Part shown: positions 1-48,647 of the stretch, one piece after another
How the letters are laid out: each line of letters starts with the position of its first letter
Position numbering within the stretch: position 1 is the stretch's first letter
NCBI GenBank assembly: GCA_964637955.1
Contig: CAZWXQ010000003.1
Span: 223,154 to 287,153, forward strand
DNA: 64,000 bases
Direction of reading: 5' to 3'
Source: an uncultured Gammaproteobacteria bacterium
GTDB lineage: Bacteria > Patescibacteriota > Microgenomatia > Levybacterales > UBA12049
Notes under the pieces: generated by a model
The model's database searches: none
What the model saw: the letters and a program-made list of their open reading frames with translations, nothing else
What the model was told of the DNA's origin: nothing
Program-made: the position numbers and the translations under genes

Positions 1-238
1 GACGAATGGATTTAAGATGTACAAAAGAAGTTTGATTAAAAAAATCAAGCTCAAGTCCGTTGGGTGGGAATTCGGTATGGAGCTGGTAATAAAAGCAAAT
101 AGTCAGGGGTATAAAATTTCAGAAGTTCCTGTTACATCAAATAAAAGAACGCACGGAAAATCAAAGTTTAAGTTTTTTTCGTGGCTGCCTAATTACTTGC
201 GATGGCTTTTTTTAGGGATTTATTTGAGATTTAAGTAA
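1..238 (+). CDS. GT2-family glycosyltransferase, C-terminal fragment (polyprenol-phosphate sugar synthase, DPM1/ArnC-like). The 5' end lies outside the window.
   Basis: The open frame runs from position 2 with no upstream stop. The translation ...[19 protein letters not shown] matches the conserved C-terminus of DPM1-like GT2 enzymes (EVP..F.DR..G.SK) and is followed by a hydrophobic tail. Confidence 0.55.
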
Positions 239-1068: not shown

Positions 1069-1272
1069 ATCGTTTATTATTTTTAATAATTATTTTATAA
1101 ATCTCAAGCACGATTCTTATACCTCCAGCATATAAATTCTTTATTGTAAATTAAAATTTTATCTTATTCCAATCCGATGGGTGAACATTTTTCTCATACT
1201 AGACTAATAAGCTAGAGCATTATATATTTGTAAAATGTTATTTGTAAATACGGCTGAGCGATTTAACATAGT

Positions 1273-3831: not shown

Positions 3832-3849
3832 CATTGTTATAATGCTTTT

Positions 3850-5900: not shown

Positions 5901-5935
5901 TTTTAAAATTTGGTAGAATCTTCTAGATAAAACTA

Positions 5936-7024: not shown

Positions 7025-7052
7025 AAAAATGATGCTATAATACCTCAATCTT

Positions 7053-8087: not shown

Positions 8088-8254
8088 ACCCGTTGATTAA
8101 ATTGTAATTGCAATAAATTTTAATATAAAAAATATTGACCCCCATAGAGAAAGATTTAAAGGCATTAATAATCTGCCTGTTTATGATATTAAGAATAAGA
8201 AAGTGATAAAGAAAAAGGAAATATGCGAATAATAAAAAATACATTTTCGTACCA

Positions 8255-12216: not shown

Positions 12217-12341
12217 ATAATCTTAAATGTTATAATAGCTTAAGTATAATTTAAAGTGACTAAAGCCGCATTTTTTTTCATATTCTGGAGTATTCTCATT
12301 TTAATCATCTATGTATATTTTCTGCTTTGTAGAGGAGGATT

Positions 12342-13919
12342 ATGTTTGCAATAGCAATTTTAATTGGTATTTACTCTTATATAATTTTTGCTCTTGGGAT
12401 AGTGGGATTTTTGTCTAAGATTCCAGTTTTGATTTCTACTATAATTTTTCTTTTTGGCGCTGCATTATATTTTAAAAAGCATAGGGAAGATCTTCCAAGA
12501 TTTCAAATTAAAAACCGAAAATTTAAACAACTATTTATTCTATTTTGTGTCTTCGCAGTCATAAATCTAGTCGGAGTATTAGGGCCTGAAATTTCTTTTG
12601 ATGCTTTGTGGTATCACCTGACCATTCCCAAAATCTTTATCGATGCACATAAAATATTTTTTATTGAAGGAAACATTTTTTATTATTCACTAATGCCAAA
12701 ACTTACGGAAATGCTTTATATTCCAGCATTAATGTTTGGTAATGAAAACCTTCCAAAGTTTATTCAATGGTCTTTTGGTATTCTAACAAGCATCGTTGTT
12801 TACAAGATTTCAAGAAAATATTTTGATGAAAAAGTTTCATTTTTTGCTGTGCTTATATTTTATGGAAGTTTGGTAGTGGCTTGGGAATCGACTGTAGCAT
12901 ATATAGATTTATCTCGAACTTTTTTTGAGGTGATGGGACTTCTTGGATTTATAAATTGGTATGAAACAAAAGATAGGAAATGGTTGGTGGAATCAGCAGT
13001 GATGGTAGGATTTGCAATGTCTACAAAAAATTTGGCGATTGGGAGTCTAGTAATTTATTTTGTTTTATTTTTATGTGCAGATAAAAATTATAAACAGATG
13101 ATAAAAAATGCGATATTATTTGTGCTCGTAGCAATATTAACAGCATTGCCTTGGTATCTCTATGCGTATATGTTTTCAGGAAATCCTATCTATCCATTTT
13201 TTGATAAGAGAATAGTTTATAATACTTCATCAGCAATTAATTTAATTACGTTTCCAAAAGAAGCGTTTGATTTTTTCTTAAAACTTGCAGATCCTATTTC
13301 TCCTCTATTTTTAATATTCTTACCGTTAATAATAATTTATTTTAGAAGATTTAATAAACCATTAAAATTAATCGCAATTTACTGCTTGGTAGCAATAATA
13401 ATTTGGTATATAACTCCACGTACTGGTGGAGGGAGATTTATTCTTCCTTATCTTCCTGCTTTTTCGGTGGTCGCAATCGCAGCAATAAGTGAGTTTAAAG
13501 ATAAAAGAATTAAAAAGTTTTCATATTTTTTAATTATTTTGGTATTTGTAATTAATTTGACTTATAGAGCAGTTGCAAATTCCAGATATATACCAGTCAT
13601 AATTGGAAAAGAGTCAAAAGATGAATTTTTAACCAAAAATTTAAATTTTAATTTCAGTGAATTTTATGACACAGATGGATTTTTTAAAGAGAATATAAAA
13701 AAAAATGATAGAGTACTTCTTTTCGGATTCCACAATCTTTATTACGCAGACTTTCCATTTGTAGACTCTTCATATATTAAAAAAGGTGAAGAGTTTAACT
13801 TCGTCGCGACCCAAAACTCTGAACTTCCAGAAAGATTTAAAAATTGGGATTTAATTTATGTTAATGATCTTACAAAAGTTAAAGTATATACTTTAGGAAG
13901 AATAAAATGGCACTACTAA
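12342..13919 (+). CDS. Polytopic membrane protein, putative GT-C-like glycosyltransferase
   Basis: A strong Shine-Dalgarno sequence GAGGAGG lies 6 nt upstream of the ATG. The 525 aa protein has about 12 TM segments and an acidic first-loop motif (ISFDALWYH). Confidence 0.45.
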   Translation: MFAIAILIGIYSYIIFALGIVGFLSKIPVLISTIIFLFGAALYFKKHREDLPRFQIKNRKFKQLFILFCVFAVINLVGVLGPEISFDALWYHLTIPKIFIDAHKIFFIEGNIFYYSLMPKLTEMLYIPALMFGNENLPKFIQWSFGILTSIVVYKISRKYFDEKVSFFAVLIFYGSLVVAWESTVAYIDLSRTFFEVMGLLGFINWYETKDRKWLVESAVMVGFAMSTKNLAIGSLVIYFVLFLCADKNYKQMIKNAILFVLVAILTALPWYLYAYMFSGNPIYPFFDKRIVYNTSSAINLITFPKEAFDFFLKLADPISPLFLIFLPLIIIYFRRFNKPLKLIAIYCLVAIIIWYITPRTGGGRFILPYLPAFSVVAIAAISEFKDKRIKKFSYFLIILVFVINLTYRAVANSRYIPVIIGKESKDEFLTKNLNFNFSEFYDTDGFFKENIKKNDRVLLFGFHNLYYADFPFVDSSYIKKGEEFNFVATQNSELPERFKNWDLIYVNDLTKVKVYTLGRIKWHY

Positions 13920-15103
13920 AATATTTGTTTCCAATACTTTTCTTGGCATTTTCTTTCGGAGAACTAGCGCGAATAAGACTTTTTGCATCAGTTAATTCAG
14001 GAATATTCGATCTAATATTAATTTCTATTCTAGGGATTTGGTTTTTATTTTCCAAAAAATCAAAATACACCCTTTTAAAACCACTTCTACTTTTTTCAGG
14101 TCTAGCACTTTTTTCTTTAGTTATTAATTTTGGAAAATTTCATGTTGATCAGATTTTTATTTCGTCACTTTATCTTGTCAGATTTATTTTATACTCGGGA
14201 ATTTATTTTGTCTTAGTTGATCTAGATAAAAAAAATATAAATCGCATTTCTTTTTATATGCTTTTTTCAGGTCTAGTAATAATAATTTTAGGTTTTCTTC
14301 AATATTTCTTTTACCCAAGCTTAAAAAATTTATACTATCTGGGATGGGATGATCATATGTACAGGTTGTTTTCCACTTTTCTTGACCCAAATTTTACCGG
14401 ATCATTTTTTGTTTTGTTTCTGGTGTTTGTATATATTCTCAAAGAAAAGTTATTTCCAAAAAAATACTTGTGGGCTTCATATCTTGTAATAGCTTTAAAT
14501 TTGATTGCGATAGTTCTGACATTTTCTAGAGGTGCTCTTTTAATGCTTCTAGTTTGCGTAGTTACATATTCCTTATTATCTAAAAACTGGAAAATTACTG
14601 GAGGAATCATTGTCGGATTTATTTTGGTATTCTTTATTCTTTCTCCTAAGTTTTATGTTGAGAATATGAATTTACTTCGCTTCGCTTCCACTGAAGCAAG
14701 AATTGAGTCAGCAAAAAGGGGATTATCTATTTGGCAGGAAAATCCGATGGGAGTAGGATTCAATACTTACAGATTCGCTCGCAAAGCTTATGAGCCCACA
14801 GATTGGACTAATTTTGGTCCAAGTCATGCTGGGAGTGGTATTGATAATAGTTTAATTTTGGTTCTTGCTACAGCGGGTTTTATGGGCTTTGGCGCGTATG
14901 TGTACCTGCTTTATAGGATATTTAAATTGGGTTATTCGAATATTCATGAGAAAGTTAAAGAAAATAAGTTTGCTTTAGTGCTTGTTATTTCGCTCGTTGG
15001 ACTTACGGTAAACAGTTTATTTATCAATAGCCTTTTTTATAGCTTTTTATTATTTTGGATTTTTGTTCTTGCTGGACTTACTGAGAATAGTTCACGTGAA
15101 TGA
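13907..15103 (+). CDS. O-antigen ligase / Wzy_C-domain glycan polymerase family protein
   Basis: It is multi-TM with the LTFSRGALLMLL motif typical of the Wzy_C domain. Length is 398 aa. Confidence 0.6.
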   Translation: MALLKYLFPILFLAFSFGELARIRLFASVNSGIFDLILISILGIWFLFSKKSKYTLLKPLLLFSGLALFSLVINFGKFHVDQIFISSLYLVRFILYSGIYFVLVDLDKKNINRISFYMLFSGLVIIILGFLQYFFYPSLKNLYYLGWDDHMYRLFSTFLDPNFTGSFFVLFLVFVYILKEKLFPKKYLWASYLVIALNLIAIVLTFSRGALLMLLVCVVTYSLLSKNWKITGGIIVGFILVFFILSPKFYVENMNLLRFASTEARIESAKRGLSIWQENPMGVGFNTYRFARKAYEPTDWTNFGPSHAGSGIDNSLILVLATAGFMGFGAYVYLLYRIFKLGYSNIHEKVKENKFALVLVISLVGLTVNSLFINSLFYSFLLFWIFVLAGLTENSSRE

Positions 15104-34750: not shown

Positions 34751-36070
34751 TTATTTTAATTTCGAGAGCAAGCTCTCCTTAACTTTTCCTGAGTCGATTT
34801 TCTCAGGAAATTGGCGCATAACTTGGCCAACTAAGAACATAATAACAGTTTCTTTTCCGTTTTTGAAGTCAGTAACAGCCTTTTCATTTTCATTTATAAC
34901 TTTTTCAACAATTTCATTAAGTTTACTTTCATCTACATCTGCGACTTTTGTAGACTGAACTATTGTTTGTATTAATTGTGCAGGTAAAACATCTTCAATA
35001 TTTGTTTTTTTGTTAATTATTTGATTTGCAATTTGCTTAGGTTTTATTCCAAATTCTTTTCCGTCATTTACAGCTCTTTCGAAATAATCAGCCATAGATT
35101 TGTCTCGTGTCAAAATTTCAGCATCATATATTGGTAATTCATATTCATCTTGAAATCTTTTTGACTTAGTATCGGGTAGTTCCGGGATTCGAGACTTAAG
35201 GTCTGAAATTTGATCATCCGTAAATCTAAGCGGTGGGATGTCGGGTTCTGGAAAATATCTGTACTGCTCGGCATCTTCTTTAGATCTTTGTGAAACGGTT
35301 GAAGAGTTTGATTCAACATATCCTCGAGTTTCTTGAGCTGGCCTTTCGCTTCGATCAAGAATTTCTGCTTGTCTCTTGATTTCATATTCAATTGCTTTTA
35401 CTACGAAATTAAATGAATTTATATTTTTTACTTCTACTTTATAGTTTGGTAGTTCGGTTTGACCTTCATGACGAAGTGAAATATTTGGCTCAAGTCTCAT
35501 GTTTCCTTTTTCCATGTCAGCATCAGAAACATCAAGATAGCGAACGATTTGCTGAAGTCTTTGAAGATATTCTTTTACATCTTCTGGATTATCAAAATCA
35601 GGCTCAGTTACTATCTCTACGAGTGGAACTCCGGACCTATTAAAATCAATTAAAGATACTTTTTCGCCGTTTATAACTTCGTGGCTTAGCTTTCCAGTAT
35701 CTTCTTCCATATGGACGCGGGTTATGCCAATCTTCTTGCCGCTTGAAAGAGTCATATAGCCGTTTTTTGCAAAAGGGAGGTCATATTGACTGATCTGGTA
35801 TCCTTTTGCTAGGTCTGGATAAAAATAGTTTTTACGATCGAATTTGGAGAACAGATTTATCTCGCAGTTTAGTGCAAGTCCTATCATGATGCACCACTCG
35901 ATAGCTTTTTTATTTGGAACGGGAAGTGCACCTGGAAGTCCAAGACAAACTGGACAAGTGTGAGTATTTGGTTCTTGTCCAAAATAATCTGCAGAACAAG
36001 CACAAAACATCTTAGATTTTGTTTTAAGTTCTACGTGTACTTCAAGGCCTGTTACCAATGTGTACTTCAT
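34751..36070 (-). CDS. gatB: Asp/Glu-tRNA(Asn/Gln) amidotransferase subunit B
   Basis: The N-terminus is MKYTLVTGLEVHVELKTKSKMFCAC. Length is 439 aa. Confidence 0.9.
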   Translation of the reverse strand: MKYTLVTGLEVHVELKTKSKMFCACSADYFGQEPNTHTCPVCLGLPGALPVPNKKAIEWCIMIGLALNCEINLFSKFDRKNYFYPDLAKGYQISQYDLPFAKNGYMTLSSGKKIGITRVHMEEDTGKLSHEVINGEKVSLIDFNRSGVPLVEIVTEPDFDNPEDVKEYLQRLQQIVRYLDVSDADMEKGNMRLEPNISLRHEGQTELPNYKVEVKNINSFNFVVKAIEYEIKRQAEILDRSERPAQETRGYVESNSSTVSQRSKEDAEQYRYFPEPDIPPLRFTDDQISDLKSRIPELPDTKSKRFQDEYELPIYDAEILTRDKSMADYFERAVNDGKEFGIKPKQIANQIINKKTNIEDVLPAQLIQTIVQSTKVADVDESKLNEIVEKVINENEKAVTDFKNGKETVIMFLVGQVMRQFPEKIDSGKVKESLLSKLK

Positions 36071-36071
36071 A

Positions 36072-36521
36072 TTATTCTTTTATTCTGTCTACTAGACCTC
36101 CTGTAAATCTTGCTTCGTAAATAAGCTTTCCGTTTCTTGTGATAGTTTCATGAATATTAAATTCCTCATCGTTTCCAGTCGCAATATTTTTATAAGAAAA
36201 TTCTCCTTGCGTGTGTGACTGTGGGCCTCTTAAAGATTTTGGTGCGAGATTTAAAACCTTTTTCAAGTATCCATAAACTTCAGCAAGATCGTGACCAGGC
36301 ATTACTGCGCCATAATAAACCATTATCCAGCAAGGCTTATCATCATAAGACACAATTTGTCTTCCGCCATAAGGTTCACCACCGAAGAAATTATCGTGAC
36401 TTCTGAACTTGTCTTTTTCATAAACAAAGGTCGTTGAGCCGTCATCTTCTTTTATTCCATCTGCGCCACTTGCATAGCCGTTTAGGTTCGCTTCAGCAAT
36501 AAAATCTGCAAGTCCTTTCAT
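36072..36521 (-). CDS. Hypothetical protein embedded between gatA and gatB
   Basis: It is a 149 aa ORF. It is tightly packed, 2 nt from gatB and 4 nt overlapping gatA. Confidence 0.5.
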   Translation of the reverse strand: MKGLADFIAEANLNGYASGADGIKEDDGSTTFVYEKDKFRSHDNFFGGEPYGGRQIVSYDDKPCWIMVYYGAVMPGHDLAEVYGYLKKVLNLAPKSLRGPQSHTQGEFSYKNIATGNDEEFNIHETITRNGKLIYEARFTGGLVDRIKE

Positions 36522-37939
36522 AGTTCAACCTCCTTTTTTCTCCAAACTTCATCTTGAGTTGTGCTCTCATAAATATTGGCAATTTGTATGATTTTTGATT
36601 CTCCCCACTGAGGTCCAATGATCTGCATTCCAATTGGTAAGTTTGAACTAGAAAATCCGACTGGAATATTTATGCCAGTGAGTCCTGCGATAGAGCTTGG
36701 TTCTACTAATATATCTGCAAGCTCACCAAACATTGATTGGCCTTCGCTTGCTCCAACAGGGAGTGCAAGGGTTGGGGAAGTGGGAGCAAGAATTGCATCT
36801 ACTTTTTCAAAAGCTTTTTTAAAGTCATTAATGATCACGGTTCTAACTTTGGAAGCCTTGTTGTAATATTGATCATAGTAACCAGAGGAAAGTGCATGAG
36901 TTCCAAACATAATTCTTCTCTTTGCTTCCTGACCAAAAGCATCTCTAGTATTTCCGTATCTAATGCCGTCATATCTTGCTAAATTTGAGCTTACTTCTGA
37001 GCGTTGAATGATGGTATAAACATCAATTGCATATTTTGGATCAAAAAGTTTAATGGTTTCAATTTTAAATCCTAATTTTTCAAGTTTTTTAACAGCTTCT
37101 TTAATTGATGCTGATAGTTCCTTGTCTACGCCGTTAAAATACTCTTCTGAAATTCCAAGGATTAAATCTTTATTTGAATTATTTATTGTTTTCAAATAAT
37201 CTTCAGGCTCGAGTGGAGAAGTCGTAGCATCCATATTGTCTTGCCCTGCGAGTATATTTAAGATTAGCGCTGAGTCTTCAACAGTTTTAGTAATAGGTCC
37301 AGGAGAGTCTAAACTCGATCCCATCGCTACTACACCATATCTACTAACTCTGCCATATGTAGGTTTGAGTCCTACGACCCCACACCACGATGCAGGTTGT
37401 CTTATAGATCCAGCTGTTTCGCTTCCAATTGCTGCAATCACTTGATTGGCTGCTACAGTTGCAGCGCTTCCTCCAGAAGAGCCTCCGGGAAGATAATCTG
37501 TGTTCCAAGGATTTAAAGTCGGACCAAAGTCAGATGTTTCCGTGCTGCTTCCATGTGCCCAAGCGTCCATGTTGGTTTTTCCAATCATAACCATTCCAGC
37601 ACTTTTAAGTTTACTAACCACTGTCGAATCAAAAGGAGGAATGTAACCATCTAAAACTTTTGCAGAAGCAGTCGTTCTTACGCCAATTGTTGAAAAATTA
37701 TCTTTTACTGCGATTGGAATTCCAAGAAGAGGAAGATCTTCACCTTTAGCTATTTGTTCATCGGCTTTTTTCGCGCTTTCAAGTGCAGAATCTTCGGTAA
37801 GAGTTACGAATACGTTAAGTTTGTCGTCAGTTGCATTTATCCTATCAAAACAAGCTTTGGTAAGCTCCACTGACGAAAACTCTTTTTTCTTTAGTCCTTC
37901 TTTTGCTTGAGCAATATTCAATTTATTAAGCATTTGCAA
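36518..37939 (-). CDS. gatA: Glu-tRNA(Gln) amidotransferase subunit A (amidase family)
   Basis: The amidase signature GGSSGGSAA and Ser-cisSer-Lys context are present. Length is 473 aa. Confidence 0.9.
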   Translation of the reverse strand: MQMLNKLNIAQAKEGLKKKEFSSVELTKACFDRINATDDKLNVFVTLTEDSALESAKKADEQIAKGEDLPLLGIPIAVKDNFSTIGVRTTASAKVLDGYIPPFDSTVVSKLKSAGMVMIGKTNMDAWAHGSSTETSDFGPTLNPWNTDYLPGGSSGGSAATVAANQVIAAIGSETAGSIRQPASWCGVVGLKPTYGRVSRYGVVAMGSSLDSPGPITKTVEDSALILNILAGQDNMDATTSPLEPEDYLKTINNSNKDLILGISEEYFNGVDKELSASIKEAVKKLEKLGFKIETIKLFDPKYAIDVYTIIQRSEVSSNLARYDGIRYGNTRDAFGQEAKRRIMFGTHALSSGYYDQYYNKASKVRTVIINDFKKAFEKVDAILAPTSPTLALPVGASEGQSMFGELADILVEPSSIAGLTGINIPVGFSSSNLPIGMQIIGPQWGESKIIQIANIYESTTQDEVWRKKEVEL

Positions 37940-38549
37940 AATTTATCCCCTCATATTCTTTTATAAAAAAATCTACTCCATCTGTTTTAATTTTAACGTA
38001 AGCAGAGTTAGTTACTGCACCGTGAATAAGTTGTTTGTAAGTTCCAATCCCAAGTTTTACAAGCACAGCTCTTAGAAATCCTCCATGCGAAACTACTAGT
38101 AAAGTTTTACCAGGATCTACGATAGCCATTTCTCTTATGAATGTCATAAATCTCATATAAATTTCTTCATCACTTTCCGTGTCGCCTTTATATTTGAATT
38201 TATAATGTTCTTCCTCCGATAAATCTTTTATTAGTTCATCCCATTCTCTAAAATTAATAGAGGGAGTTCCTTCAATTTCTCCATAAGTTCTTTCTCTCAG
38301 AAGTTGTGTTGCCTTAATTGTTAATTTATGTTCCTCGTTAATAATCTCAGCTGTTTTCATTGCTCTTCCTAAATCAGATGAAAAGATGTAGTCAAACTTA
38401 ATGTCTTTAAATTTTTTTGTCAAAGCTTTTGCTTGTTCTTCTCCTTTCTCGGTTAAGGGGGAATCGGAATGACCTTGAATAATGTGCTCTATATTCCAGA
38501 CAGTTTCGCCGTGTCTAATGATATAAATTGTTGTTAATTTGTTTTGCAT
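37926..38549 (-). CDS. Histidine phosphatase family protein (phosphoglycerate mutase-like)
   Basis: The RHGETVWN catalytic motif is present. Length is 207 aa. Confidence 0.75.
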   Translation of the reverse strand: MQNKLTTIYIIRHGETVWNIEHIIQGHSDSPLTEKGEEQAKALTKKFKDIKFDYIFSSDLGRAMKTAEIINEEHKLTIKATQLLRERTYGEIEGTPSINFREWDELIKDLSEEEHYKFKYKGDTESDEEIYMRFMTFIREMAIVDPGKTLLVVSHGGFLRAVLVKLGIGTYKQLIHGAVTNSAYVKIKTDGVDFFIKEYEGINFANA

Positions 38550-39172
38550 TAATCTATTAACTCTACTCCTTTCATGTCTTTTATATAAAAATCTATGCCA
38601 TCTGATTCAAGCTTAATATAAGCAGTATTATGGACTTTTTTTATTTTTTTGTGCGTAGAATATCCTAAGTGAATGAGTAGATTGTGCATAAGTCCACCGT
38701 GTGTTGTGATAAGAACTGTTTTCCCCATGTAGCCTATTGCTACTTCTCTCAGAAAGGTTATGAGCCTTGCAGAAACATCTTCCCAGCTTTCTACATTTTT
38801 ATACTTTTCATAATTTTCATCCTTTTTTCTTTCTTCCTCGGAAAGGGCACGCCACTGATCAAATTTAGTAAAGAAGTTTCGAGTAATTGTTCCCTCAAAT
38901 TCACCATAATTTAATTCACGTAAGATCTTGGTAGTCTCAATTGCTAATTCTTTTTCCAGTACAATAATTTCCGCAGTTCTTTTAGCTCTTAATAAGTCTG
39001 AGGAGAAAACTTTATCAAATTTTACATCTTTTAATTCTTTCTTTAATTCATGTGCCTGTTTTTCACCTTCTTCATTGAGAAGAGTATCAGTATGTCCTTG
39101 AATAATATGCTGAGCGTTCCAATCTGTTTCGCCATGTCTAACTACATATAGAGTTGTTAAATTATTATTCAT
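38549..39172 (-). CDS. Histidine phosphatase family protein (tandem paralogue)
   Basis: RHGETDWN is present. The start is probably the internal Met (MNNNLTTLYVV) at 39172 rather than 39202. Confidence 0.7.
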   Translation of the reverse strand: MNNNLTTLYVVRHGETDWNAQHIIQGHTDTLLNEEGEKQAHELKKELKDVKFDKVFSSDLLRAKRTAEIIVLEKELAIETTKILRELNYGEFEGTITRNFFTKFDQWRALSEEERKKDENYEKYKNVESWEDVSARLITFLREVAIGYMGKTVLITTHGGLMHNLLIHLGYSTHKKIKKVHNTAYIKLESDGIDFYIKDMKGVELID

Positions 39173-39173
39173 A

Positions 39174-39635
39174 TTATTCGCTAAAAAGTGAAAATAAAAC
39201 ATTATTTTTATAATTCGCGATTATAGATTTTATGTATCTTGATGTGTTTTCGGGAATATTGTTTAAATCTGTCCAAATCATGTCGTCACTTTTATTTTCG
39301 TTTGTAAGTTTTGGTTCACCTGTCCAATTTCTGGCTAGGAAAACTAAGTCTATATAATCTGCGTTTGTTTCTTTAGAAATTTCAGGAATAAATTTTCTAT
39401 GAACTACTTGAATTAATTCTAAATCTTTTTCAAAGACATTTAAATCTGATTCTTCTTTTGCTTCTCTGATTGCTGCTTCGATTGCCGATTCATTTTCCTC
39501 AAGGTGTCCTGCAGGTAGTCCATATTTCCCGTCTTGCCAGCCTGTATTTGCTCTTCGATACATTAATAATTTTCCTTCTTTAATAAAGAGTACGTAGACA
39601 GCACATCTGAGCATGAATCTTTTTTCCTCAGTCAT
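39174..39635 (-). CDS. NUDIX hydrolase
   Basis: The Nudix box is GHLEENESAIEAAIREAKEESDL. Confidence 0.8.
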   Translation of the reverse strand: MTEEKRFMLRCAVYVLFIKEGKLLMYRRANTGWQDGKYGLPAGHLEENESAIEAAIREAKEESDLNVFEKDLELIQVVHRKFIPEISKETNADYIDLVFLARNWTGEPKLTNENKSDDMIWTDLNNIPENTSRYIKSIIANYKNNVLFSLFSE

Positions 39636-39912
39636 TATTTAGAATTCCTTTCACTTTGAAAAAGCCATTATGGGTTGATTTAGCGTTAGATAACGCTTGA
39701 TCCTGAGTGAGTGAAGGTTTTACTTCATCTTCTCTAGTTATATTTTCAAGTCCCGTTACCTGAGAAGTTGGATCTAGGTCATTTGTATCTACTTCATCAA
39801 GACTTCTTATGTACTCTGTTGTTTCTTCGAGTTGTTTAGAAAATTTATCTTCTTCATTAGAGTTGAGAGTTAAATTTGCAAGTTTTGCAACGCTTTTAAT
39901 ATCAAACTTCAT
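39628..39912 (-). CDS. gatC: Asp/Glu-tRNA amidotransferase subunit C
   Basis: MKFDIKSVAKLANLTLNSNEEDKF...EVDT matches GatC. The start is assigned to an internal Met; the ORF-track start at 39990 adds an unlikely hydrophobic extension. Confidence 0.7.
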   Translation of the reverse strand: MKFDIKSVAKLANLTLNSNEEDKFSKQLEETTEYIRSLDEVDTNDLDPTSQVTGLENITREDEVKPSLTQDQALSNAKSTHNGFFKVKGILNND

Positions 39913-39974
39913 GCATGAATTATATAAAAGAACAGAATGTATAGCAATAAAGCTTGGAGTATTTATGCTCCAAT

Positions 39975-40003
39975 TTGTAATTACCTCCACATAGGAATAT
40001 AAT
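39975..40003 (+). promoter_or_regulatory. Sigma70-like promoter TTGTAA-N17-TATAAT, 9 nt upstream of the GTG start at 40013 (leaderless)
   Basis: Read directly from the sequence. Confidence 0.4.
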
Positions 40004-40012
40004 TACTCACTT

Positions 40013-40639
40013 GTGAGTCAAGAAAGAATAACTCCATCAGAAATAATATTGCCTCAATGGCTAATTGTCGAAATTGGTTGTGGAAACTTTCCATTTCCTG
40101 TTTCAGGAGAAAGAAGATTAAAGGCAAATGAGAGATATTTAGGCGTTGAACTAAGGCATTATGATACTTGGGGTGATCATGATCCTGTTACAACGGCAAT
40201 TGAAAAGTTAAATAAATCTGATCCACCTCAAGAGGGAATATTTGAAGTTATCGAATGGGATGGTAGGATGATGGAGCTTTCTGATAGGTCTGCTGATGAA
40301 GTGCATATGCAAAATGTAATCGGGGATGAAAACTTCATTAATACAAGAGCGGCATTGTTAAAAGAAGGCGCAAGAATTTTAAAAAAATCTGGAGTTTTGA
40401 GAATTGTTGAAGATGAAGTTTCATCTAGAGCGCATCCAAGCTGGTTAAGAGAAATGATGGAACCCCTCGGAATGGTGCAGATCAATGAGGGTCGAGAGCA
40501 AGATTTGGATCTATTAAGAAATTATTGCAGTCTTAAAGTTGACCAGAGTCCTTTGGCTTTTGTTGCAGAATTTGGATTTGTAGATAACGTTGATGAATTA
40601 CCAAGTAATGTTATTTTATTTAAGCCCAGAAAAGCATAA
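40013..40639 (+). CDS. Hypothetical protein with a methyltransferase-like Rossmann motif
   Basis: It has a GTG start and is 208 aa. LIVEIGCGNF resembles SAM-MTase motif I. It is GC-richer than the flanks. Confidence 0.4.
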   Translation: MSQERITPSEIILPQWLIVEIGCGNFPFPVSGERRLKANERYLGVELRHYDTWGDHDPVTTAIEKLNKSDPPQEGIFEVIEWDGRMMELSDRSADEVHMQNVIGDENFINTRAALLKEGARILKKSGVLRIVEDEVSSRAHPSWLREMMEPLGMVQINEGREQDLDLLRNYCSLKVDQSPLAFVAEFGFVDNVDELPSNVILFKPRKA

Positions 40640-40641
40640 TT

Positions 40642-41364
40642 TTAAAGTTTTTTTAAGATAGCTTCACGCGCTTTTGATTCTATTTTGTCATCCAATGGTT
40701 TTAATTCATCAGTTTTAAGAGAAAGATTGAGTAAATAATCAGCAAGCTGTGGGTTTTTAGGTAAAATTGGTCCGTGAAGATAAGTTCCAAAACTGTTTTT
40801 ATGCCTGGCACCCTCAAATCCATCATCATTATTTCCATGGCCCTTAATCACTTTTCCAAATGGTTTTACATTTTCTCCAAGATAAGTTCTTCCGCCATGA
40901 TTTTCAAAACCTATGATTTGCTCATTTAGGCTTTCAGTAATAGGTTCAATAATTATATTTCCGATTAGTCTTTCAGAATTGTTTCCCGGGTTTTCAGTAT
41001 GTAAATCAAAAATTCCTAAGCCATCAACAATAGATCCATCTGCCTCCTTGTAGAAGTTTCCTAGAAATTGGAAGCCACCACATACAAAAAGACCGGGTAT
41101 TCCGTCATCAATCATCATTGACAGGGTTTTATGATGTTTTTTAAGATCTGTATTTACTATTGTTTGTTGTTTGTCCTGGGCCCCACCCATAACTAGAAGA
41201 TCGCAGTCATTAAGAAGCTTGTCATCAAATCCTGGATTTAATTCAATTACATCTACCTTTATGTCTCGCCACATTGCTCTTTTGACAAGAGTAGTGATGT
41301 TGCCTCGATCACCATAAATGTTCATAAGCTGTGGATACAGCCATCCGATTTTCAAATATGTCAT
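40642..41364 (-). CDS. gatD: Lipid II isoglutaminyl synthase, glutamine amidotransferase subunit GatD
   Basis: There is strong block similarity to S. aureus GatD: IYGDRGN, GLFVCGGFQFLG, GFENHGGRTY and GTYLHGPILPKN. Confidence 0.85.
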   Translation of the reverse strand: MTYLKIGWLYPQLMNIYGDRGNITTLVKRAMWRDIKVDVIELNPGFDDKLLNDCDLLVMGGAQDKQQTIVNTDLKKHHKTLSMMIDDGIPGLFVCGGFQFLGNFYKEADGSIVDGLGIFDLHTENPGNNSERLIGNIIIEPITESLNEQIIGFENHGGRTYLGENVKPFGKVIKGHGNNDDGFEGARHKNSFGTYLHGPILPKNPQLADYLLNLSLKTDELKPLDDKIESKAREAILKKL

Positions 41365-42329
41365 TGTTTTAAATATTCTATATCATCAAGTATGCTTTCT
41401 TTAGCATGATTAATTCCGCTGATGTGGCCATTCTGATCACTCCACCAAAGTAATTCAACTGTTAAAAACCCTTTAATTACATGGAAATTAAAATCAAAAT
41501 TTTCTAATGGGCTTATGGTTTCATATCCTTCTTTGAGATATTTGATTTGGTTTTTGTTTCTCTTATGCCAAAAATCCCAATCGGCAAAATCATGATAAAT
41601 TAAAGCGCTTTTACAAACTCCGAAGTCCAAAATTCCTGTAATTTTATCTTCAGTAACCATAATATGTTTTGGGCTGTAATCGCCATGAGCTAGATAAGTA
41701 TCCAAGTCGTTAAGTTTATTTTTGTCAGCCTCAAGTAGTTGAAATAGCTCTGGGATAATTTCAGGATTAAAATTATTTTTTATGGCTACTTCTTTAAATA
41801 TTTCTGCTTTTCCAAGAATTTCATTAGCATAAGACTCAAAATTCAGCATTTTTCCGTGTCCTTGTGGATCAATATCCCAATAGCCAGTTGTCTTAATTTT
41901 GTGAATTTTTGCAAGTATTTCTCCAGCGCTTATAAAAGTATCTTTAAAGTGATCATCTTCATATTCTTTGATAGACTCCGAGAGTGGTTTGCCTGGGACT
42001 TTAGATAATAGACAGTAATAAATTTTTTCTAATTCAAGCTCTTTTTCTCCGATCCCCAAAATATTTGGAATTGGGACGCCTTCATTTCTACTTTTTTCCA
42101 TAGCCCATACTTCGTAATCAAAGGATCTGTATCTTGAGATTCTTAAAATGTAGCTTTCATCATCTGAGGCTTTAACATCATATACTTCATTATCTTCGCC
42201 CTTAACTATTCTAGATTTATTAATTACCTTTGAGTTTGTAATTTTCTCAACGATTTCATTAATAGTGTCATCTGGGGTTCGATGCTTTGAGTGTTTTTCT
42301 TCGAGATATTTTTGATAATCAAATTTCAT
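41361..42329 (-). CDS. APH/ChoK-family phosphotransferase (protein-kinase-like fold)
   Basis: Conserved blocks are YILRI, HGDYSPKHIMV and ILDFG. It is 322 aa, with 4-nt overlaps to both neighbours. Confidence 0.75.
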   Translation of the reverse strand: MKFDYQKYLEEKHSKHRTPDDTINEIVEKITNSKVINKSRIVKGEDNEVYDVKASDDESYILRISRYRSFDYEVWAMEKSRNEGVPIPNILGIGEKELELEKIYYCLLSKVPGKPLSESIKEYEDDHFKDTFISAGEILAKIHKIKTTGYWDIDPQGHGKMLNFESYANEILGKAEIFKEVAIKNNFNPEIIPELFQLLEADKNKLNDLDTYLAHGDYSPKHIMVTEDKITGILDFGVCKSALIYHDFADWDFWHKRNKNQIKYLKEGYETISPLENFDFNFHVIKGFLTVELLWWSDQNGHISGINHAKESILDDIEYLKQ

Positions 42330-43072
42330 AATTTAGGAAAAATTTTGTTTTCGTCGTTTACTTCAATAAATCGTCCATTGTACATATCATGAAGCTTTCC
42401 ATTTTTATGCCATTTTTTGTTTTTATTATATTCATCTACCCATAAATAAGTATATGTATTAAAAAGTCCAGGTTTTTCGAAAAAATTATTTCTCTGAGAA
42501 ATATAAAACCAAAAATAATTTGATGGAGTATCAAAGCCTTTTGAATATTTATTATAAATCGTATTGTTTGAGTTTTGTCTAATTCCTTTGACTTCGAGTG
42601 CAAAATTTTTTATGTACTCACTACGGATTTCTAATGAGTTTAATGGAATTTCATCCTTTACATAGTACAAATTATTCATTGGATCTAAAACAAACCATTT
42701 TTTAAATTTTGAAGACCATATATCGCAAACACCATGGTGCATGTCTGGTTCAGTTGCTTCATGGTCGCTGTCTACTCCAAGTTTTCTGACATACCATCCA
42801 AGAGCAGTTGAGCATTGGATTAGAAGCTGAGTTTGCTGTGTGCAGCGAAAGTGCATTCCTTTTTCCAGATCTTTTAGAATTTCAAAAGATGAAAGATCAG
42901 AATAATCTTTATATTCACCACCTGAAGGGAGTTTGTTAAAAACCCAATTGTTTAAAGCAATTTGTTGTTCAAATTCATCATCTGAATTCAAAATAATTTC
43001 TTCTAAATGGCATAAACTTTTAAGTTCAATAAGTTTTGGATTATCAAACTTTTCCCAGATAAAATTCGTCAT
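42326..43072 (-). CDS. Transglutaminase-like cysteine-protease-fold protein
   Basis: FRCTQQTQLLIQCSTALGWYVRKLGV...HHGVCDIW...WFVLDP matches the Cys-His-Asp core layout of the transglutaminase-like superfamily. Confidence 0.5.
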   Translation of the reverse strand: MTNFIWEKFDNPKLIELKSLCHLEEIILNSDDEFEQQIALNNWVFNKLPSGGEYKDYSDLSSFEILKDLEKGMHFRCTQQTQLLIQCSTALGWYVRKLGVDSDHEATEPDMHHGVCDIWSSKFKKWFVLDPMNNLYYVKDEIPLNSLEIRSEYIKNFALEVKGIRQNSNNTIYNKYSKGFDTPSNYFWFYISQRNNFFEKPGLFNTYTYLWVDEYNKNKKWHKNGKLHDMYNGRFIEVNDENKIFPKL

Positions 43073-44364
43073 AATATTTTCTTTCCTGTAATTATTTTAC
43101 GTATATCTAGCATTGCAGAGTAATTGGGAAGAATGTAAAGTGTTTCGCCTCCTTCCAGGCTTTTTGCAGCTTGATCAAGTGCTTCTTCTGGATCAGAGTA
43201 TGAATGAGCAAAAATTTCTGTATATTTAAGTCGAAGTGCCATGTCAAAAACTCTGTCGCCACTTACTGTAATGTGCATGTTTTTACTTAGTAATTCTTCG
43301 AAGTTTATATCCCAAATCCAACTTACATCAAGTCCGTCCGGGATTTTATCATTAAATAAAATCAAGAGATTTTTGCCTTTAAGTTCTCTTATTGTTTCCA
43401 GGGATTCATTAAAGCTTGTTGGGTTTTTAGAAAGAAAAATTTGAACTTTATTCCCTTTATACTCTAGTGTTTCTTGTCTTCCAAAAGCAGGGGTGAAAGT
43501 GGAAAAAGCACTTTCTATTTTAGACTTAGAGATATCTTCTTGTTCTCCAAAAAGAGCAGCGGCAAGAGTATTGTATTTATTGTAGTTTCCGAAAAGAGGG
43601 AAGCTTGAAATATTGTCTAAATCTGGCTTTGGTCTTTCAAGTTTACAATTCGGGCATTTCCATATTCCAAGATGAGAGAAAAAGACAGTCGAAAAAGAAA
43701 GTTTTTCACTACATTTCGGACAATGCGTGGAATCTGCGCCATGTTTTAGTTCGGTTTTATCACCCTTTTCGAGACCGAAGTAAGCGGACTTGGCTTTTGA
43801 TTTATTCCCAAGATATGAAATCAGCGGATCATCGGCGTTTAGAATGAGTGTTGTTTTATTACTTAGTTTTTCAAAAGCCCTAGACCATTTTTGAGCAATA
43901 GAATCCACCTCGCCATAGCGATCCAGCTGATCTCTAAAAAGATTTAGTGCGACGATGTAATCTGGGCTAGTTTGTTCAAGGATTAGAGGAAGAGCATTTT
44001 CATCAGATTCAAAAATGAGATAATCTTTCTCTAGCCTCGCAAGGCCAGGCCTTGCGAGGCTAAGGTTTACTCCTCTTATTAAAGTTGAAGCAAGTCCATT
44101 TACTAGGTTGGCTCCTGCTTTGTTTTGAAGATAGGTTTTTTCGTTTTCTCTTATTATTGATGTTATGAGTCGGGAAGTGGTGGTTTTGCCATTTGTCCCT
44201 GCGACTATGATTATTTTTGTTTTTGAATTCTTGAGAACGTCTTTTATAAAGTTTTTATTTAGCTTCAGCGCAATATGTCCAGGCCAGGTAGAGCCTGAGC
44301 CGAGATTAAAAGTCGAACTAAGAATAATAAGTAGCTTTCCAATTAGAATAGAAGTTATATTCAT
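43069..44364 (-). CDS. murT: Lipid II isoglutaminyl synthase, Mur-ligase subunit MurT
   Basis: The P-loop IIVAGTNGKTTTSRLI and the MurT-specific Cys4 ribbon HCPKCSEKL...WKCPNC are present. NLFRDQLDRYGE is also conserved. Confidence 0.85.
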   Translation of the reverse strand: MNITSILIGKLLIILSSTFNLGSGSTWPGHIALKLNKNFIKDVLKNSKTKIIIVAGTNGKTTTSRLITSIIRENEKTYLQNKAGANLVNGLASTLIRGVNLSLARPGLARLEKDYLIFESDENALPLILEQTSPDYIVALNLFRDQLDRYGEVDSIAQKWSRAFEKLSNKTTLILNADDPLISYLGNKSKAKSAYFGLEKGDKTELKHGADSTHCPKCSEKLSFSTVFFSHLGIWKCPNCKLERPKPDLDNISSFPLFGNYNKYNTLAAALFGEQEDISKSKIESAFSTFTPAFGRQETLEYKGNKVQIFLSKNPTSFNESLETIRELKGKNLLILFNDKIPDGLDVSWIWDINFEELLSKNMHITVSGDRVFDMALRLKYTEIFAHSYSDPEEALDQAAKSLEGGETLYILPNYSAMLDIRKIITGKKIL

Positions 44365-44867
44365 GTTAAATTTGGATTGTCCAATGTACCTTTAAAGTAT
44401 TTCCATTCCTTGTTGTCTGGAGTTCCTCCACTTACTGCATGAGCTCCTGCATATCCAGATTTTTTAAAAATATCAATAGTTTTTCTTACTGAATCACCAT
44501 TTCCAAAAATTGATATCATAGATCCATCAGTCCATAATTCAACTTCAAACTGGACATCTTCTGGAGCTCTTTCTGGAGAAAGTCCTTCGCCTTCTCTCAG
44601 AAAACCATGATTAGAAGTATTATTACTATAAACGATAGAGCTACCAATGGTTACGCCTGTTATCCTGGATTTTGAGGCTGGCTCTTGTGAATTTTCTCCT
44701 AAATATGGTAAACGGTTTTCAAGAGACTCTTTAACATATGAGACTTTTCTTGCATTTCTTGTTTCCTCAGATAGACCTGTTTCATCTCTAACTTTTGGAA
44801 GGAAAGATTTATGTTCTGGTGCTTGTAAGAACCCTACTTCTACAGGAGCTATGTCAGTCATCTTCAT
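44361..44867 (-). CDS. Hypothetical protein
   Basis: It is 168 aa and overlaps the murT start by 4 nt. Confidence 0.45.
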   Translation of the reverse strand: MKMTDIAPVEVGFLQAPEHKSFLPKVRDETGLSEETRNARKVSYVKESLENRLPYLGENSQEPASKSRITGVTIGSSIVYSNNTSNHGFLREGEGLSPERAPEDVQFEVELWTDGSMISIFGNGDSVRKTIDIFKKSGYAGAHAVSGGTPDNKEWKYFKGTLDNPNLT

Positions 44868-44893
44868 ATTGTAGCAAAGATTTTGAGGTGAGT

Positions 44894-45331
44894 TTAGGAT
44901 GACATCTGAAGGAAATTTTTAATCATCTTATTTATTTTTTCTGTAGCAAGTTCTGAGTTAATCGTTTTTGGCACGTGGATAAATGAATATTTAGAATTTG
45001 GTATATTTTTTGTAATAAGAAAAGAAATATAGTTACAGTACGAATTTCCAATATCTTCTGAATAAATTACTCCATCGATTGGCTCAAGAAAATTATTTAT
45101 TTTAAGAGCTTGAGTATCGCTCTGACACTCGGTTTCCAATCTTATTTTGGTTTGTTCGGGTCCATCATAATCTCCAATGCCAATTATGAATTTATATTCA
45201 TATAGTTGGTCAGAGAAGTTTGGCAGCAATGTTTTTCCTCTTGGAGCAATTAGTCGATTTGGAAAATCGATTTCTATAATTATTCTCTTAGGAAGTTTGG
45301 CAGGTAGCGCAAAGATAACAAGATCTTTCAT
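44894..45331 (-). CDS. Hypothetical protein
   Basis: It is 145 aa and abuts the htpX stop. Confidence 0.45.
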   Translation of the reverse strand: MKDLVIFALPAKLPKRIIIEIDFPNRLIAPRGKTLLPNFSDQLYEYKFIIGIGDYDGPEQTKIRLETECQSDTQALKINNFLEPIDGVIYSEDIGNSYCNYISFLITKNIPNSKYSFIHVPKTINSELATEKINKMIKNFLQMSS

Positions 45332-46221
45332 TACATTGTTCTTAGGATTTTAATTCTTTCTTCTAGAGGCGGGTGAGTATTAAATAGTCCTGTGAACATG
45401 TTTTTAACGTTCTTTTTATTGTCAAATGGGTTTTCTATGAAAAGATGGGCAGTAGCATTGCTGGCATGTTTTGGAGGAGTATGGTCAGCTGCTAGCTTCT
45501 CAAGAGCCGAAGCCAAGCCTTCTGGATAACGCGTGAGAAGAGCGCCAGATGCATCAGCGAGAAGCTCTCTTTTTCTGCTTACTGAGAGTTGGATAAGAGT
45601 CGCTGCGATGGGTGAAAGAATTGCCAAGACTATAGCTACGATCATAAATAATGCATTACCTTTATTGTCGTCTGAGTTACTGAAGAATGAAATTCTGACA
45701 AACATGTCTGAGAGTATAGCCACAAATCCTACGAGAATTGCAAGAACTCCCGCAAGTCTTATGTCAAAGTTTTTTATATGAGAAAGTTCATGTGCGATCA
45801 CTCCTTCAAGTTCTGCTTCATTCATCATGTTTAGAAGGCCTGTGGAAGCTGCTACGACAGCGTGTTTGGGGTCTCGCCCTGTAGCGAAGGCATTTGGGGA
45901 AGGATCATTTATAACATAAACTTTTGGCATGGGAAGTCCTGAGGCAATCGAAAGATTCTCTACGGCTCTATAGTAATCTGGGAAATCTTGTTTTTGAATT
46001 AACTTAGCACCAGTGCTCGCAATAACCATTTTATCTGAGTAATAAAAACTGCCGATACTCATAATTCCAGAAATAACTAATGCTATTCCTGTAACGCCAA
46101 TTACACTAAGTCCAAGAGCTTTGCTCATGACGTAAACGATTGTAGTTATGAAGACCACAAAGAAAAACATGATAGCCCAAGTTTTCCATTTGTTTGAAGA
46201 TATATTACTGTAGATATTCAT
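45331..46221 (-). CDS. htpX: HtpX-like M48 zinc metalloprotease
   Basis: The HExxH motif HELSHIKN is present. There are 4 TM segments. Confidence 0.85.
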   Translation of the reverse strand: MNIYSNISSNKWKTWAIMFFFVVFITTIVYVMSKALGLSVIGVTGIALVISGIMSIGSFYYSDKMVIASTGAKLIQKQDFPDYYRAVENLSIASGLPMPKVYVINDPSPNAFATGRDPKHAVVAASTGLLNMMNEAELEGVIAHELSHIKNFDIRLAGVLAILVGFVAILSDMFVRISFFSNSDDNKGNALFMIVAIVLAILSPIAATLIQLSVSRKRELLADASGALLTRYPEGLASALEKLAADHTPPKHASNATAHLFIENPFDNKKNVKNMFTGLFNTHPPLEERIKILRTM

Positions 46222-46296
46222 AAAATTAAGAATTCTAAATAAATTTAGAATAACGATTTATTATTAATAAGAAATACTATTTTAAAACTCAATGAA

Positions 46297-46851
46297 TTAG
46301 AAAGATACTTTAACGTTTTTTCTTTCTTCTTCAGTGGCTCCGAAGAACTCCGCAGGTTGAAAATTAAGCATTTTTGCAAAAATTACATTTGGGAAAACTT
46401 GAAGTTTTGTGTTGTAATCAAGAACATTTGAATTATAAAACTGTCTGCTATAAGCGATTTTATTTTCTGTATCTGATAATTCTTCTTGCAGTTCTTTAAA
46501 ATTATCACTAGCTTTAAGTTCTGGATATGCTTCGGCTACTGCAAAAATTGATTTTAAAGCATCAGTAATTTGATTGTTAACTTCTGATTTTTTCTCAGGA
46601 GTTTTTGCACTCATTAAATCGCTTCTAAGCTCAGTTACTTTTTCAAAAACTGCTTTTTCGTGTTTAGCATAGCCTTTTACAGTTTCGATAAGATTTGGAA
46701 TAAGATCAGTTCTTCTTTTTAGCTGTACATCTATTTGAGAAAATGCTTCTTTGACTCTGAGTCTTGCTGAAATTAGAGAGTTATAAATATACCAAAGGAA
46801 TATTCCAATTCCTCCAACTATTATTACTAAAATTATTATTGTTGTATTCAT
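46297..46851 (-). CDS. lemA: LemA-family protein
   Basis: It has an N-terminal TM helix and the conserved block [21 protein letters not shown]...AYPELKA. Confidence 0.8.
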
Positions 46852-46880
46852 TATAAATTGATCCTTTTTCAGGTTTAAAG

Positions 46881-48647
46881 TTAACTCTTAAACCAATCCT
46901 TAACTTTATTATATAGCATTGTATTAATAATGTCATCTTTTTTAGCCCACCCTCGTCTTGCCTGAGAAACACCGTATGGCATAAGCTCCATCTGAGATTT
47001 TTCATGTGAATCAGTATCGATCACCAGTTTTACACCGGCCTCTATAGCCATTCGTACCACTGAGCCTTCCAGATCAAGTCGATTTGGAAATGAATTTATT
47101 TCAAGAGCTTTGTTGTTTGCGACGCAAAATTTGAATAACTTTTCGAAATCTACTTCGTATCCTGGTCTTTCATTAAGAAGTCTTCCAGTAGGATGAGCAA
47201 GAATCTTGGCTTTTGGATGAGACAAGCCTTTTATGATCCTCTCTGTCATTTCATCTTTTCGAGTTTTAAATACGCTGTGAATGGAAACTATACTTGCGTC
47301 TAGTTCATCTAGTGCAGCGTCTGGAAGTGCCAGAGATCCATTTGGGAGAATATCAGTTTCCATCAATTTAAAAATAGGGAAGTCGTGCTTTTTACTTCGC
47401 TTATCTATTTCAGCGTTTCTCTTTTTGATTAGATCAAGGATCTGATCATCAGAATGCTTTGATTGGGATGGATTATGTTCTGAAAAACCCATGTAGGAAT
47501 ATCCAAGAGACTTGGCTTTAAGAATCATCTCCTCGATGGTACTTTGGCCTAAATCATGGGAGGGTTCTATGGGAAAGCTAGAGTGAAGATGAAATTCTCC
47601 TTTTATATCTTTTAATTCCAGTAATTTTGGAAGTTTATTAGCAATTGCCAACTCAATTTCTCCAGAGTCTTCGCGCATTTCAGGAGGAATCCATGCAAGT
47701 CCAATTGCTTTATAAAAATCTTCCTCATTCGCATATTTGGTAACTTTTCCTGTTTTTACATTTTTTATTCCTTTTTCATTTAGAGATAATCCTTTTTTAA
47801 GAGCTAGCTCTCTCAAATGAACATTGTGATCTTTACTTCCTGTAAAATGCTGAAGGAGTGATCCCCATTGATCAGGCTCTAAAACCAAAAGATCGATTTG
47901 TGCGCCACCAGTGGTAAGAAGGGAAGAGCCGGATGGACCTTTTTCTATAATTCTGGATTTTCTGGGATAATCTGCGAAGTGATCAATGGTTTTGGCAGGA
48001 TCTTTACTAACAACTGCAATATCGATATCTCCGACCAGTGGTTTTCTTCTACGCAAACTACCAAGTGGCATGGCTTCTTTTACATTTTTATCTTCTTTAA
48101 GATAATCAATCATGTCCTGGGCAATTTCACCGGCATAGGGAAGTAGCATCTTAGTGGTTTTTCCAAATCCTTTTTTAAATTCTTCTATTGCTCGCAGAAT
48201 ATCAGCTTGGGATTTTTCTCCAAAGCCTTCAAGCTTTGCGATTTCTCCTGCTTCAGCTACCTTGGTTAAATCATCCAGAGCGGTTTTTTCATTCTCAATT
48301 TTGAACTCTGTCGCAAGTCGATATGCTTTCTTAGGACCAATACTCGGAATCTCTATAAATAGAAAAACTGGCTTGGGTATTCCTGACATGACCTCATCAA
48401 AATGGTCGACTTTCCCAGTTGAGAGAAGTTCTTCGAGTCTTTGCTTGAGAGTAGCTCCAACACCTGGGATCTGGTCAAGTTTTCCCTCTTTATATAAATC
48501 TGCGACTTGAATACTAAGTCCGTCTATGGCGTCAGCTGCATTTTGGTAGGCGAGAAGTTGAAATCGAAATTTCGCTTCATTTTTAATAATATAAGCAGCG
48601 GCTACATCGCGAAGAAGCTTAGAAATTTCCTTATTTGTCATGTCCAA
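46881..48647 (-). CDS. polX: Family X DNA polymerase with C-terminal PHP domain (PolX)
   Basis: It has N-terminal HhH motifs, a pol-beta nucleotidyltransferase motif [17 protein letters not shown] and a C-terminal PHP histidine cluster. Length is 588 aa. Confidence 0.8.

Follow-up and report, generated by a model that had tools for sequence, protein, structure and literature searches.

A transglutaminase-fold protein gene and an APH-fold kinase gene between murT and gatD in a Levybacteria genome

Organization of the murT–gatD locus

We analyzed a window of 64,000 nucleotides (nt) from contig CAZWXQ010000003.1 (assembly GCA_964637955.1, positions 223,154 to 287,153), in which murT and gatD, the genes of the two subunits of the lipid II amidotransferase, are separated by two other genes. 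The window is low-GC DNA and the nearest relatives of its proteins are found in metagenome-assembled genomes (MAGs) of Candidatus Levybacteria/Patescibacteria. On the minus strand, five open reading frames (ORFs) form a chain in the order o168, murT, a gene for a protein of 248 amino acids (aa) with a transglutaminase-like fold, a gene for an APH-fold kinase and gatD, and they are joined by four successive ATGA stop–start overlaps (Table 1). The insert between murT and gatD thus comprises two genes and measures 1.7 kb. The initial annotation of this DNA, made from the sequence alone, had described murT and gatD as split by two genes and had counted four ATGA overlaps. The ORFs agree on both points, and the fourth overlap, which had been counted without a description of the gene involved, is the one between o168 and murT. 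The same annotation had proposed co-expression at fixed stoichiometry: translational coupling is correct, but a fixed stoichiometry exceeds what a 4-nt overlap shows.

When genes were called crudely across the window, 4-nt overlaps were observed at 6/43 same-strand junctions. Since four of these six fall in the consecutive run from o168 to gatD, this run exceeds the genome background. Promoter and terminator scans of positions 39500-46500 returned signal at chance level. Codon usage is native in all five chained genes, including the orphan o168 (in-frame correlation r = 0.83 and 0.89 for the two inserts), and the GC-content of the inserts (0.30 and 0.32) is slightly below that of murT and gatD (0.365 and 0.357).

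Table 1. Genes and overlaps of the murT–gatD locus and nearby accessory genes (positions in the window)
Feature	Position	Strand	Description
o168	44361-44867	minus	168 aa; first gene of the overlap chain; orphan without domain match
murT	43069-44364	minus	431 aa; lipid II isoglutaminyl synthase, Mur-ligase-like subunit
248-aa ORF	42326-43072	minus	transglutaminase/PNGase-fold Cys-His-Asp protein, predicted cytoplasmic; candidate triad C77, H113, D130
APH-like ORF	41361-42329	minus	322 aa; APH-fold small-molecule kinase; HGDYSPKH at 215-222, DFG at 235-237
gatD	40642-41364	minus	240 aa; glutaminase subunit of the lipid II amidotransferase
ATGA overlap, o168/MurT	44361-44364	minus	read from the sequence
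ATGA overlap, MurT/248-aa gene	43069-43072	minus	ATTATGA, identical to the ancestral MurT/GatD junction of relatives
ATGA overlap, 248-aa gene/kinase	42326-42329	minus	ATTATGA
ATGA overlap, kinase/GatD	41361-41364	minus	read from the sequence
o145	44894-45331		between HtpX and MurT, like o168
208-aa methyltransferase-like ORF	40013-40642	plus	tail to tail with gatD (ends 2 nt from the gatD end); head to head with gatC (22 nt between starts)
o149 (DUF5680)	36072-36521		between gatA and gatB; ATGA overlap on GatA

Identity of the encoded proteins

The identification of MurT and GatD is borne out by their Pfam matches, by their best NCBIfam models and by the residues that define the two subunits (S. 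aureus numbering; PMC6113224). MurT matches MurT_C (PF08353, DUF1727; E = 5e-30) and Mur_ligase_M (PF08245; E = 2e-19), and the MurT model of NCBIfam is its best match by far (223 bits, under the equivalog cutoff of 800 bits). The protein aligns over its full length to solved MurT structures (6fqb, 7q8e and 6gs2; E from 1e-52 to 1e-54), those of Streptococcus pneumoniae and Staphylococcus aureus included. It presents the nucleotide-binding motif GTNGKT at residues 56-61, E119 aligns with S. aureus E108 (Mg/ATP) and D346, within DGLDVSW, aligns with S. aureus D349, the residue that completes the catalytic triad of GatD. The middle domain contains a Cys4 zinc ribbon (CPKC at 215-218 and CPNC at 237-240, i.e., C215, C218, C237 and C240) that aligns to the cysteines of 6fqb and 7q8e. 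GatD matches GATase_3 (PF07685; E = 5e-34), its best NCBIfam match is the GatD model (211 bits against a cutoff of 450, and also 193 against 400), and it aligns to 5n9m and 6gs2_A (E = 3e-52) with C95 corresponding to C94, H197-G-P to H189 of the HGP motif and R132 to R128. Because both proteins remain under the equivalog cutoffs of the models that score best, they are divergent orthologues. From these sequence features we infer that MurT and GatD probably work as in Gram-positives, amidating the D-isoglutamate of lipid II.

The 248-aa protein itself has no significant match in Pfam or NCBIfam (PF01841 reaches 15.8 bits against a gathering score of 23), and a sequence-profile search of the PDB with its family returned a spurious match to a RecA repeat alone. 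However, 22 homologues all carry C77, H113 and D130, in an order and with a spacing that match the PF01841 triad. In the predicted model (predicted local distance difference test, pLDDT, of 95) this candidate triad lies at the N-terminus of a helix and on two adjacent strands, and the best matches of the model in the PDB (PNGase, TG2/TG3, TglA and 3isr) share a transglutaminase/papain-like core fold. Weak matches to PF01841 are found in 15 of the 22 family members, and remote homologues retrieved with the family profile (E from 1e-50 to 1e-74) pass PF01841 with 24.6-37 bits. Together, the invariant residues, the structural matches and these remote homologues confirm the initial transglutaminase-like call and assign the protein, by sequence and predicted structure, to a Cys-His-Asp fold of the transglutaminase/PNGase type.

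The next gene encodes an APH-fold phosphotransferase, as initially annotated. The protein matches APH (PF01636; E = 2e-21; 77.3 bits against a gathering score of 23.2) and presents a bilobal kinase fold (model pLDDT 92). Among solved structures, it is closest to APH(4)-Ia (profile E = 8e-17; template modeling (TM) score 0.71-0.78), followed by APH(2'')-Id (6e-15) and macrolide kinases. Five residues (H215, D217, K221, H222 and D235) are invariant in 14 homologues. The family departs from the APH type in two places: the motif HGDxxxKH carries an invariant His222 (after Lys221) in place of the metal-binding Asn of HxDxxxxN, and ILRISR, with invariant R63 and R66, stands where the nucleotide-binding Lys of strand 3 would be expected. 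Scores against the NCBIfam resistance models are low (APH_4_Ia, 22 bits against a cutoff of 725; APH_3p, 36 bits against 205). No anomeric sugar kinase of the AmgK/NahK type was found among the best 60 profile or best 50 fold matches in the PDB (no AmgK sequence was compared directly). We found no fusion that would act as a Rosetta stone for the kinase: the sole long homologue (P0032) belongs to a subgroup encoded outside the interval between murT and gatD. This 495-aa relative carries an N-terminal Rossmann/methyltransferase-like extension of ~170 aa without Pfam match.

Neither the 248-aa protein nor the kinase contains a hydrophobic segment and both are predicted to be cytoplasmic. The defence models of PADLOC gave nothing significant for these two proteins, nor for o168, o145 or the 208-aa methyltransferase-like ORF.

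The murT–gatD junction in related genomes

Relatives were gathered by scanning genomes and metagenomes for MurT, and the proteins of the window were then mapped onto the loci. Overall, murT and gatD are adjacent in nearly all of the ~145 loci examined. This is the case for ~25 non-redundant Levybacteria relatives found via MurT alone, none of which presents the 248-aa gene or the kinase gene between murT and gatD (hereafter, the slot). Among their assessable loci, the sole exception to adjacency is a Levybacteria MAG (L011/L091) whose slot is occupied by a TehB-like S-adenosylmethionine-dependent methyltransferase (5339-6010). Similarly, ~110 Clostridia/Ruminococcus loci present adjacent murT and gatD with the sole exception of a Clostridia MAG (L085), where a His_Phos gene lies in the slot (2218-2772). 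The adjacent junction of Levybacteria is itself an ATGA overlap (...ATAYTATGAAA...). The inserts therefore reproduce a coupling that existed before them and not a new kind of coupling.

Conservation of the four-gene arrangement (murT, 248-aa gene, kinase gene, gatD) was not found: ~30 related loci yielded no second case, only single-gene versions. The 248-aa gene is alone in the slot, with overlapping junctions, in L170 (69% identity, the closest homologue), in the P0003 contig (64%; JGI 3300075153, read from its gene table), in L173 (52%) and in L009. The copy of L009 (6001-6746) is frameshifted, with an in-frame stop after which the sequence continues in another frame, which points to a pseudogene or to an error of assembly. 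The gene also occurs outside the slot (L001, L003, L004 and L007/L008) with no MurT, GatD or kinase nearby, and most members of the family whose context is known sit elsewhere without consistent partners. The kinase gene is alone in the slot in L005 (42% identity) and L171 (38%), and a second subgroup of the family lies outside it (L006 and L172). In L172, the kinase homologue is part of an island (1995-8987) with eight NUDIX genes as well as HIT, Ham1 and nucleotidyltransferase genes. Occupied slots always present overlapping or near-abutting junctions, with a full chain of 4-nt overlaps in almost every one.

According to the initial annotation, a chance insertion would be indicated if relatives had murT and gatD side by side with the two genes elsewhere or absent. 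This is largely what we observed, since relatives have the two genes adjacent and most 248-aa homologues and one kinase subgroup are encoded elsewhere. However, this does not amount to a simple chance insertion, because the 248-aa gene is found in the slot in four other lineages and the kinase gene in two, including a deep clade.

Phylogeny of the inserted genes

We reconstructed the host tree from the concatenation of M48, MurT and GatD (956 columns). The window pairs with L009, and L173 (248-aa gene only) groups with L005 (kinase only) in a deep clade with 100% support. Between the window and this deep clade lie no fewer than six lineages whose slot is empty. The in-slot kinases form a clade (196/200 bootstraps) and all three members with a known context are in the slot. 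The 248-aa copies of the window, L009, P0002 and P0003 also form a clade (181/200 bootstraps; 4/4 known contexts in the slot), which the in-slot copy of the deep clade (P0011) joins in only 38/200 bootstraps.

Between the window and the deep clade, sequence identity is 52% for the 248-aa protein and 38-42% for the kinase, compared to 44-47% for MurT and 49-54% for GatD. Because the divergence of the inserts is in line with that of the host genes and their codon usage is native, old vertical descent accompanied by losses fits. The data fit both an old MurT–transglutaminase–kinase–GatD arrangement with many losses and a history of repeated capture. The ATTATGA shared by successive junctions could have offered a microhomology route for clean deletion.

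Interruption of other junctions and neighboring genes

The operon belongs to a block, PolX-LemA-HtpX(M48)-MurT-GatD-GatC-(His_Phos)-GatA-GatB, that is conserved across Levybacteria (34751-48647 of the window, minus strand; L010-L030 and L090-L103). As a control for the split of murT and gatD, we counted the junctions of this block that are interrupted, i.e., longer than 300 nt, across related loci. MurT/GatD was interrupted in 6/29 loci, a count that includes loci found via the inserts themselves. Interruption was observed at M48/MurT in 6/29 loci, at GatD/GatC in 7/25, at GatC/GatA in 15/23 and at GatA/GatB in 3/20, against none at PolX/LemA (0/25) and LemA/M48 (0/28). The PolX/LemA/M48 junctions are thus never broken and those downstream often are.

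In the window, the gatCAB genes are interrupted too (36072-39635): two His_Phos genes in tandem and one NUDIX gene separate gatC from gatA, and o149 separates gatA from gatB. The His_Phos gene at gatC/gatA recurs in 15/23 relatives, and o149, which follows gatA, recurs in L013 and L018 with 40-46% identity. His_Phos, NUDIX and DUF5680 proteins are not known to play a role in the GatCAB amidotransferase. Since interruptions are as frequent or more frequent at neighboring junctions, the splitting of subunit genes is common in Levybacteria. And because gatCAB is split in the same manner, with some inserts recurring, a position between subunit genes with overlaps constitutes weak evidence for shared function in this group. 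We also observed that the conserved block places the lipid II amidotransferase beside the tRNA-dependent GatCAB amidotransferase.

Upstream of murT, o168 matched nothing in Pfam, NCBIfam or PADLOC, and its only match among 5.8 billion proteins was itself. Its codon usage is native (r = 0.81 in frame, against 0.31 and 0.19 off frame; GC-content at third codon positions, 0.19). Both o168 and o145 are absent from all related loci. In L173, a 283-aa ORF unrelated to o168 and without Pfam match occupies the same position and has a 4-nt overlap with MurT. On the other side of the operon, the 208-aa methyltransferase-like ORF leaves almost no space for promoters or terminators around it, and a homologue with 35% identity is found in L094 with place and orientation conserved. 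Finally, positions 1-14000 of the window present a GC-content of 0.27-0.31, against 0.32-0.39 in the remainder, with a positive GC skew.

Interpretation of the inserted genes

The reading that we favor, and to which we give about an even chance, is that of a canonical murT–gatD operon whose permissive junction harbors two accessory enzyme genes that are old, dispensable and co-translated. Dispensability is suggested by the absence of one or both genes from most relatives and by the frameshifted copy of the 248-aa gene in L009. That the slot is permissive is indicated by the unrelated cargo that it also holds, namely the TehB-like methyltransferase and the His_Phos gene described above. We infer that the pair would be a passenger cassette in a permissive, constitutively expressed slot, with no indispensable role in amidation, and we read it as a rare accessory cassette that has been retained. 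Two cytoplasmic accessory genes would have been incorporated into the translationally coupled murT/gatD junction, each reusing the ancestral ATGA overlap, such that ribosomes ending one gene would restart on the next. All five genes would be expressed from one mRNA, without signals of their own. The 248-aa enzyme would hydrolyze or transfer an amide bond, and the kinase, which resembles APH(4) and APH(2''), would phosphorylate a hydroxyl group on a small molecule.

Several observations weigh against this reading. Both insert families are found precisely at this slot in two host clades that lie far apart, the clade of in-slot kinases is well supported and consists, wherever the context is known, of copies in the slot, and the chain of 4-nt overlaps has been kept in almost every occupied slot. 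Vertical descent requires at least six independent losses. A second, independent capture of the 248-aa gene is possible from its phylogeny, and such a capture would argue for selected co-expression with MurT/GatD. Finally, carboxamides and isopeptides, on which transglutaminase-fold enzymes act, are the very kind of group made by MurT/GatD.

These observations are accommodated by the proposal of the initial annotation that the four genes constitute an expanded module for stem-peptide modification, which we regard as a tentative alternative of clearly lower probability. In such a module, the putative transglutaminase-fold step would use or remove the newly formed D-isoglutamine amide, by transamidation to an amine (a polyamine or an amino acid), by deamidation as a form of editing or by trimming of the stem peptide, and the kinase would phosphorylate a precursor or a co-substrate. 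MurT–transglutaminase–kinase–GatD would then be the ancestral arrangement of Levybacteria, lost in most lineages. The recurrence of both families in the slot of two distant host clades, the support for the two in-slot clades and the retention of translational coupling all favor it, as does the invariance of the putative catalytic residues in both families. Both proteins are predicted to be cytoplasmic, as is the MurT/GatD reaction, which takes place on lipid II at the cytoplasmic face, and the fold family includes enzymes acting on Gln carboxamides, glycan-Asn amides and cell-wall isopeptides (TG2/3, PNGase and PeiW/PeiP). Transglutaminases have moreover been put forward as extracellular cross-linkers of pseudomurein (PMC10117817). 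The 248-aa protein, in contrast, has no signal peptide, and these enzymes offer a loose precedent for it rather than a match.

The distribution of the genes argues against such a module. The two genes occur together in this genome only, and most Levybacteria with the same operon have neither. The 248-aa gene is frameshifted in one of its in-slot copies and, in the copies outside the slot, is not accompanied by MurT, GatD or the kinase. Unrelated genes also occupy the slot, insertions that split gatC/gatA/gatB are equally frequent, and the kinase is nearest to antibiotic kinases and not to cell-wall sugar kinases. The strongest form of this proposal appears improbable to us: an ancestral four-enzyme module for lipid II editing, in which the carboxamide would serve as acyl donor (transamidation) or undergo controlled deamidation and the kinase would phosphorylate the precursor, yielding an undescribed peptidoglycan chemotype that is complete only in this genome.

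We give still less credit to a salvage pair, made up of an AmgK/NahK-type sugar kinase (the APH-fold protein) and an AmpD-like muropeptide amidase (the 248-aa protein), that would feed scavenged muropeptides into amidation. The kinase is nearest to APH(4)-Ia, APH(2'') and macrolide kinases, anomeric sugar kinases are absent from its best 60 sequence and best 50 fold matches, no NCBIfam match to such kinases was obtained and no MurU-like gene is found nearby. Least probable of all is a recent chance insertion, by which DNA new to the operon would have arrived, for instance on a mobile element or by horizontal transfer: the two-gene insert is unique among ~30 related loci and its GC-content is slightly below that of murT and gatD, but we saw no mobile-element genes or flanking repeats, and we rejected recent horizontal acquisition given the native codon usage and the in-slot homologues of relatives (the 248-aa gene with the same junction in L170 and three further relatives, and kinase orthologues in L005 and L171).

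Several Gram-positive pathogens depend on MurT/GatD for viability, and the enzyme is a drug target. In the literature, murT and gatD are described as an adjacent and co-transcribed pair, and our search found no report of transglutaminase-like or APH-like genes, or of other accessory proteins, embedded in the murT–gatD operon. In a recent survey (PMC11915815), the groups listed with MurT are limited to Bacillota, Actinomycetota, Caldisericota, Chloroflexota and pseudomurein archaea. We found MurT and GatD in every Levybacteria locus examined, and their presence throughout this group represents a modest extension of that distribution to Patescibacteria. If the extra enzymes do act on lipid II, the locus would reveal new stem-peptide chemistry in uncultured bacteria of the Candidate Phyla Radiation (CPR) and a cytoplasmic step of transglutaminase type in wall synthesis. 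Otherwise, it would neatly illustrate the way in which accessory genes are placed in the translationally coupled junctions of essential operons in streamlined CPR genomes, and it would call for caution in inferring function from operon membership in CPR lineages.

Comparison with known systems

The characterized MurT/GatD of S. aureus, S. pneumoniae and Mycobacterium tuberculosis (6gs2, 6h5e, 7q8e and 6fqb) represent the same two-subunit enzyme, whose defining residues are all kept here, and both genes are likewise in one operon. In characterized organisms, however, murT and gatD are adjacent, whereas two extra genes lie between them in the window and an orphan gene is coupled upstream. The scores obtained here are also below the NCBIfam equivalog cutoffs, and the host belongs to the CPR, which is missing from the MurT-bearing phyla of PMC11915815.

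For the kinase, the hygromycin-B 4-O-kinase APH(4)-Ia and APH(2'')-Id/IVa are the best profile and fold matches, and the HxD loop and the DFG-type Asp of these enzymes are kept. In contrast, identity to them is ~15%, the score is far under the NCBIfam cutoff of APH(4)-Ia, the Asn is replaced by an invariant His, and the gene is located inside a cell-wall operon and not in a resistance context as for antibiotic-resistance kinases. The 248-aa protein resembles the transglutaminase-like/PNGase/papain-like superfamily (PF01841; 3isr, TglA 9crn, PNGase 2f4o, TG2/TG3, PeiW/PeiP and CPR-C4 7pjo) in its core alone (TM score 0.3-0.4; 11-15% identity). Relative to this superfamily it is a compact form, predicted to be cytoplasmic and restricted to CPR, without the additional C-terminal domain found in its remote relatives (350-430 aa).

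The closest parallel to the insertion itself is found within the same Levybacteria block, where the subunit genes of the interrupted gatCAB are likewise parted by small accessory genes that are tightly packed or overlapping and present in some relatives only. The cargo families differ between the two operons and the gatC/gatA insertion is the more widespread of the two (15/23).

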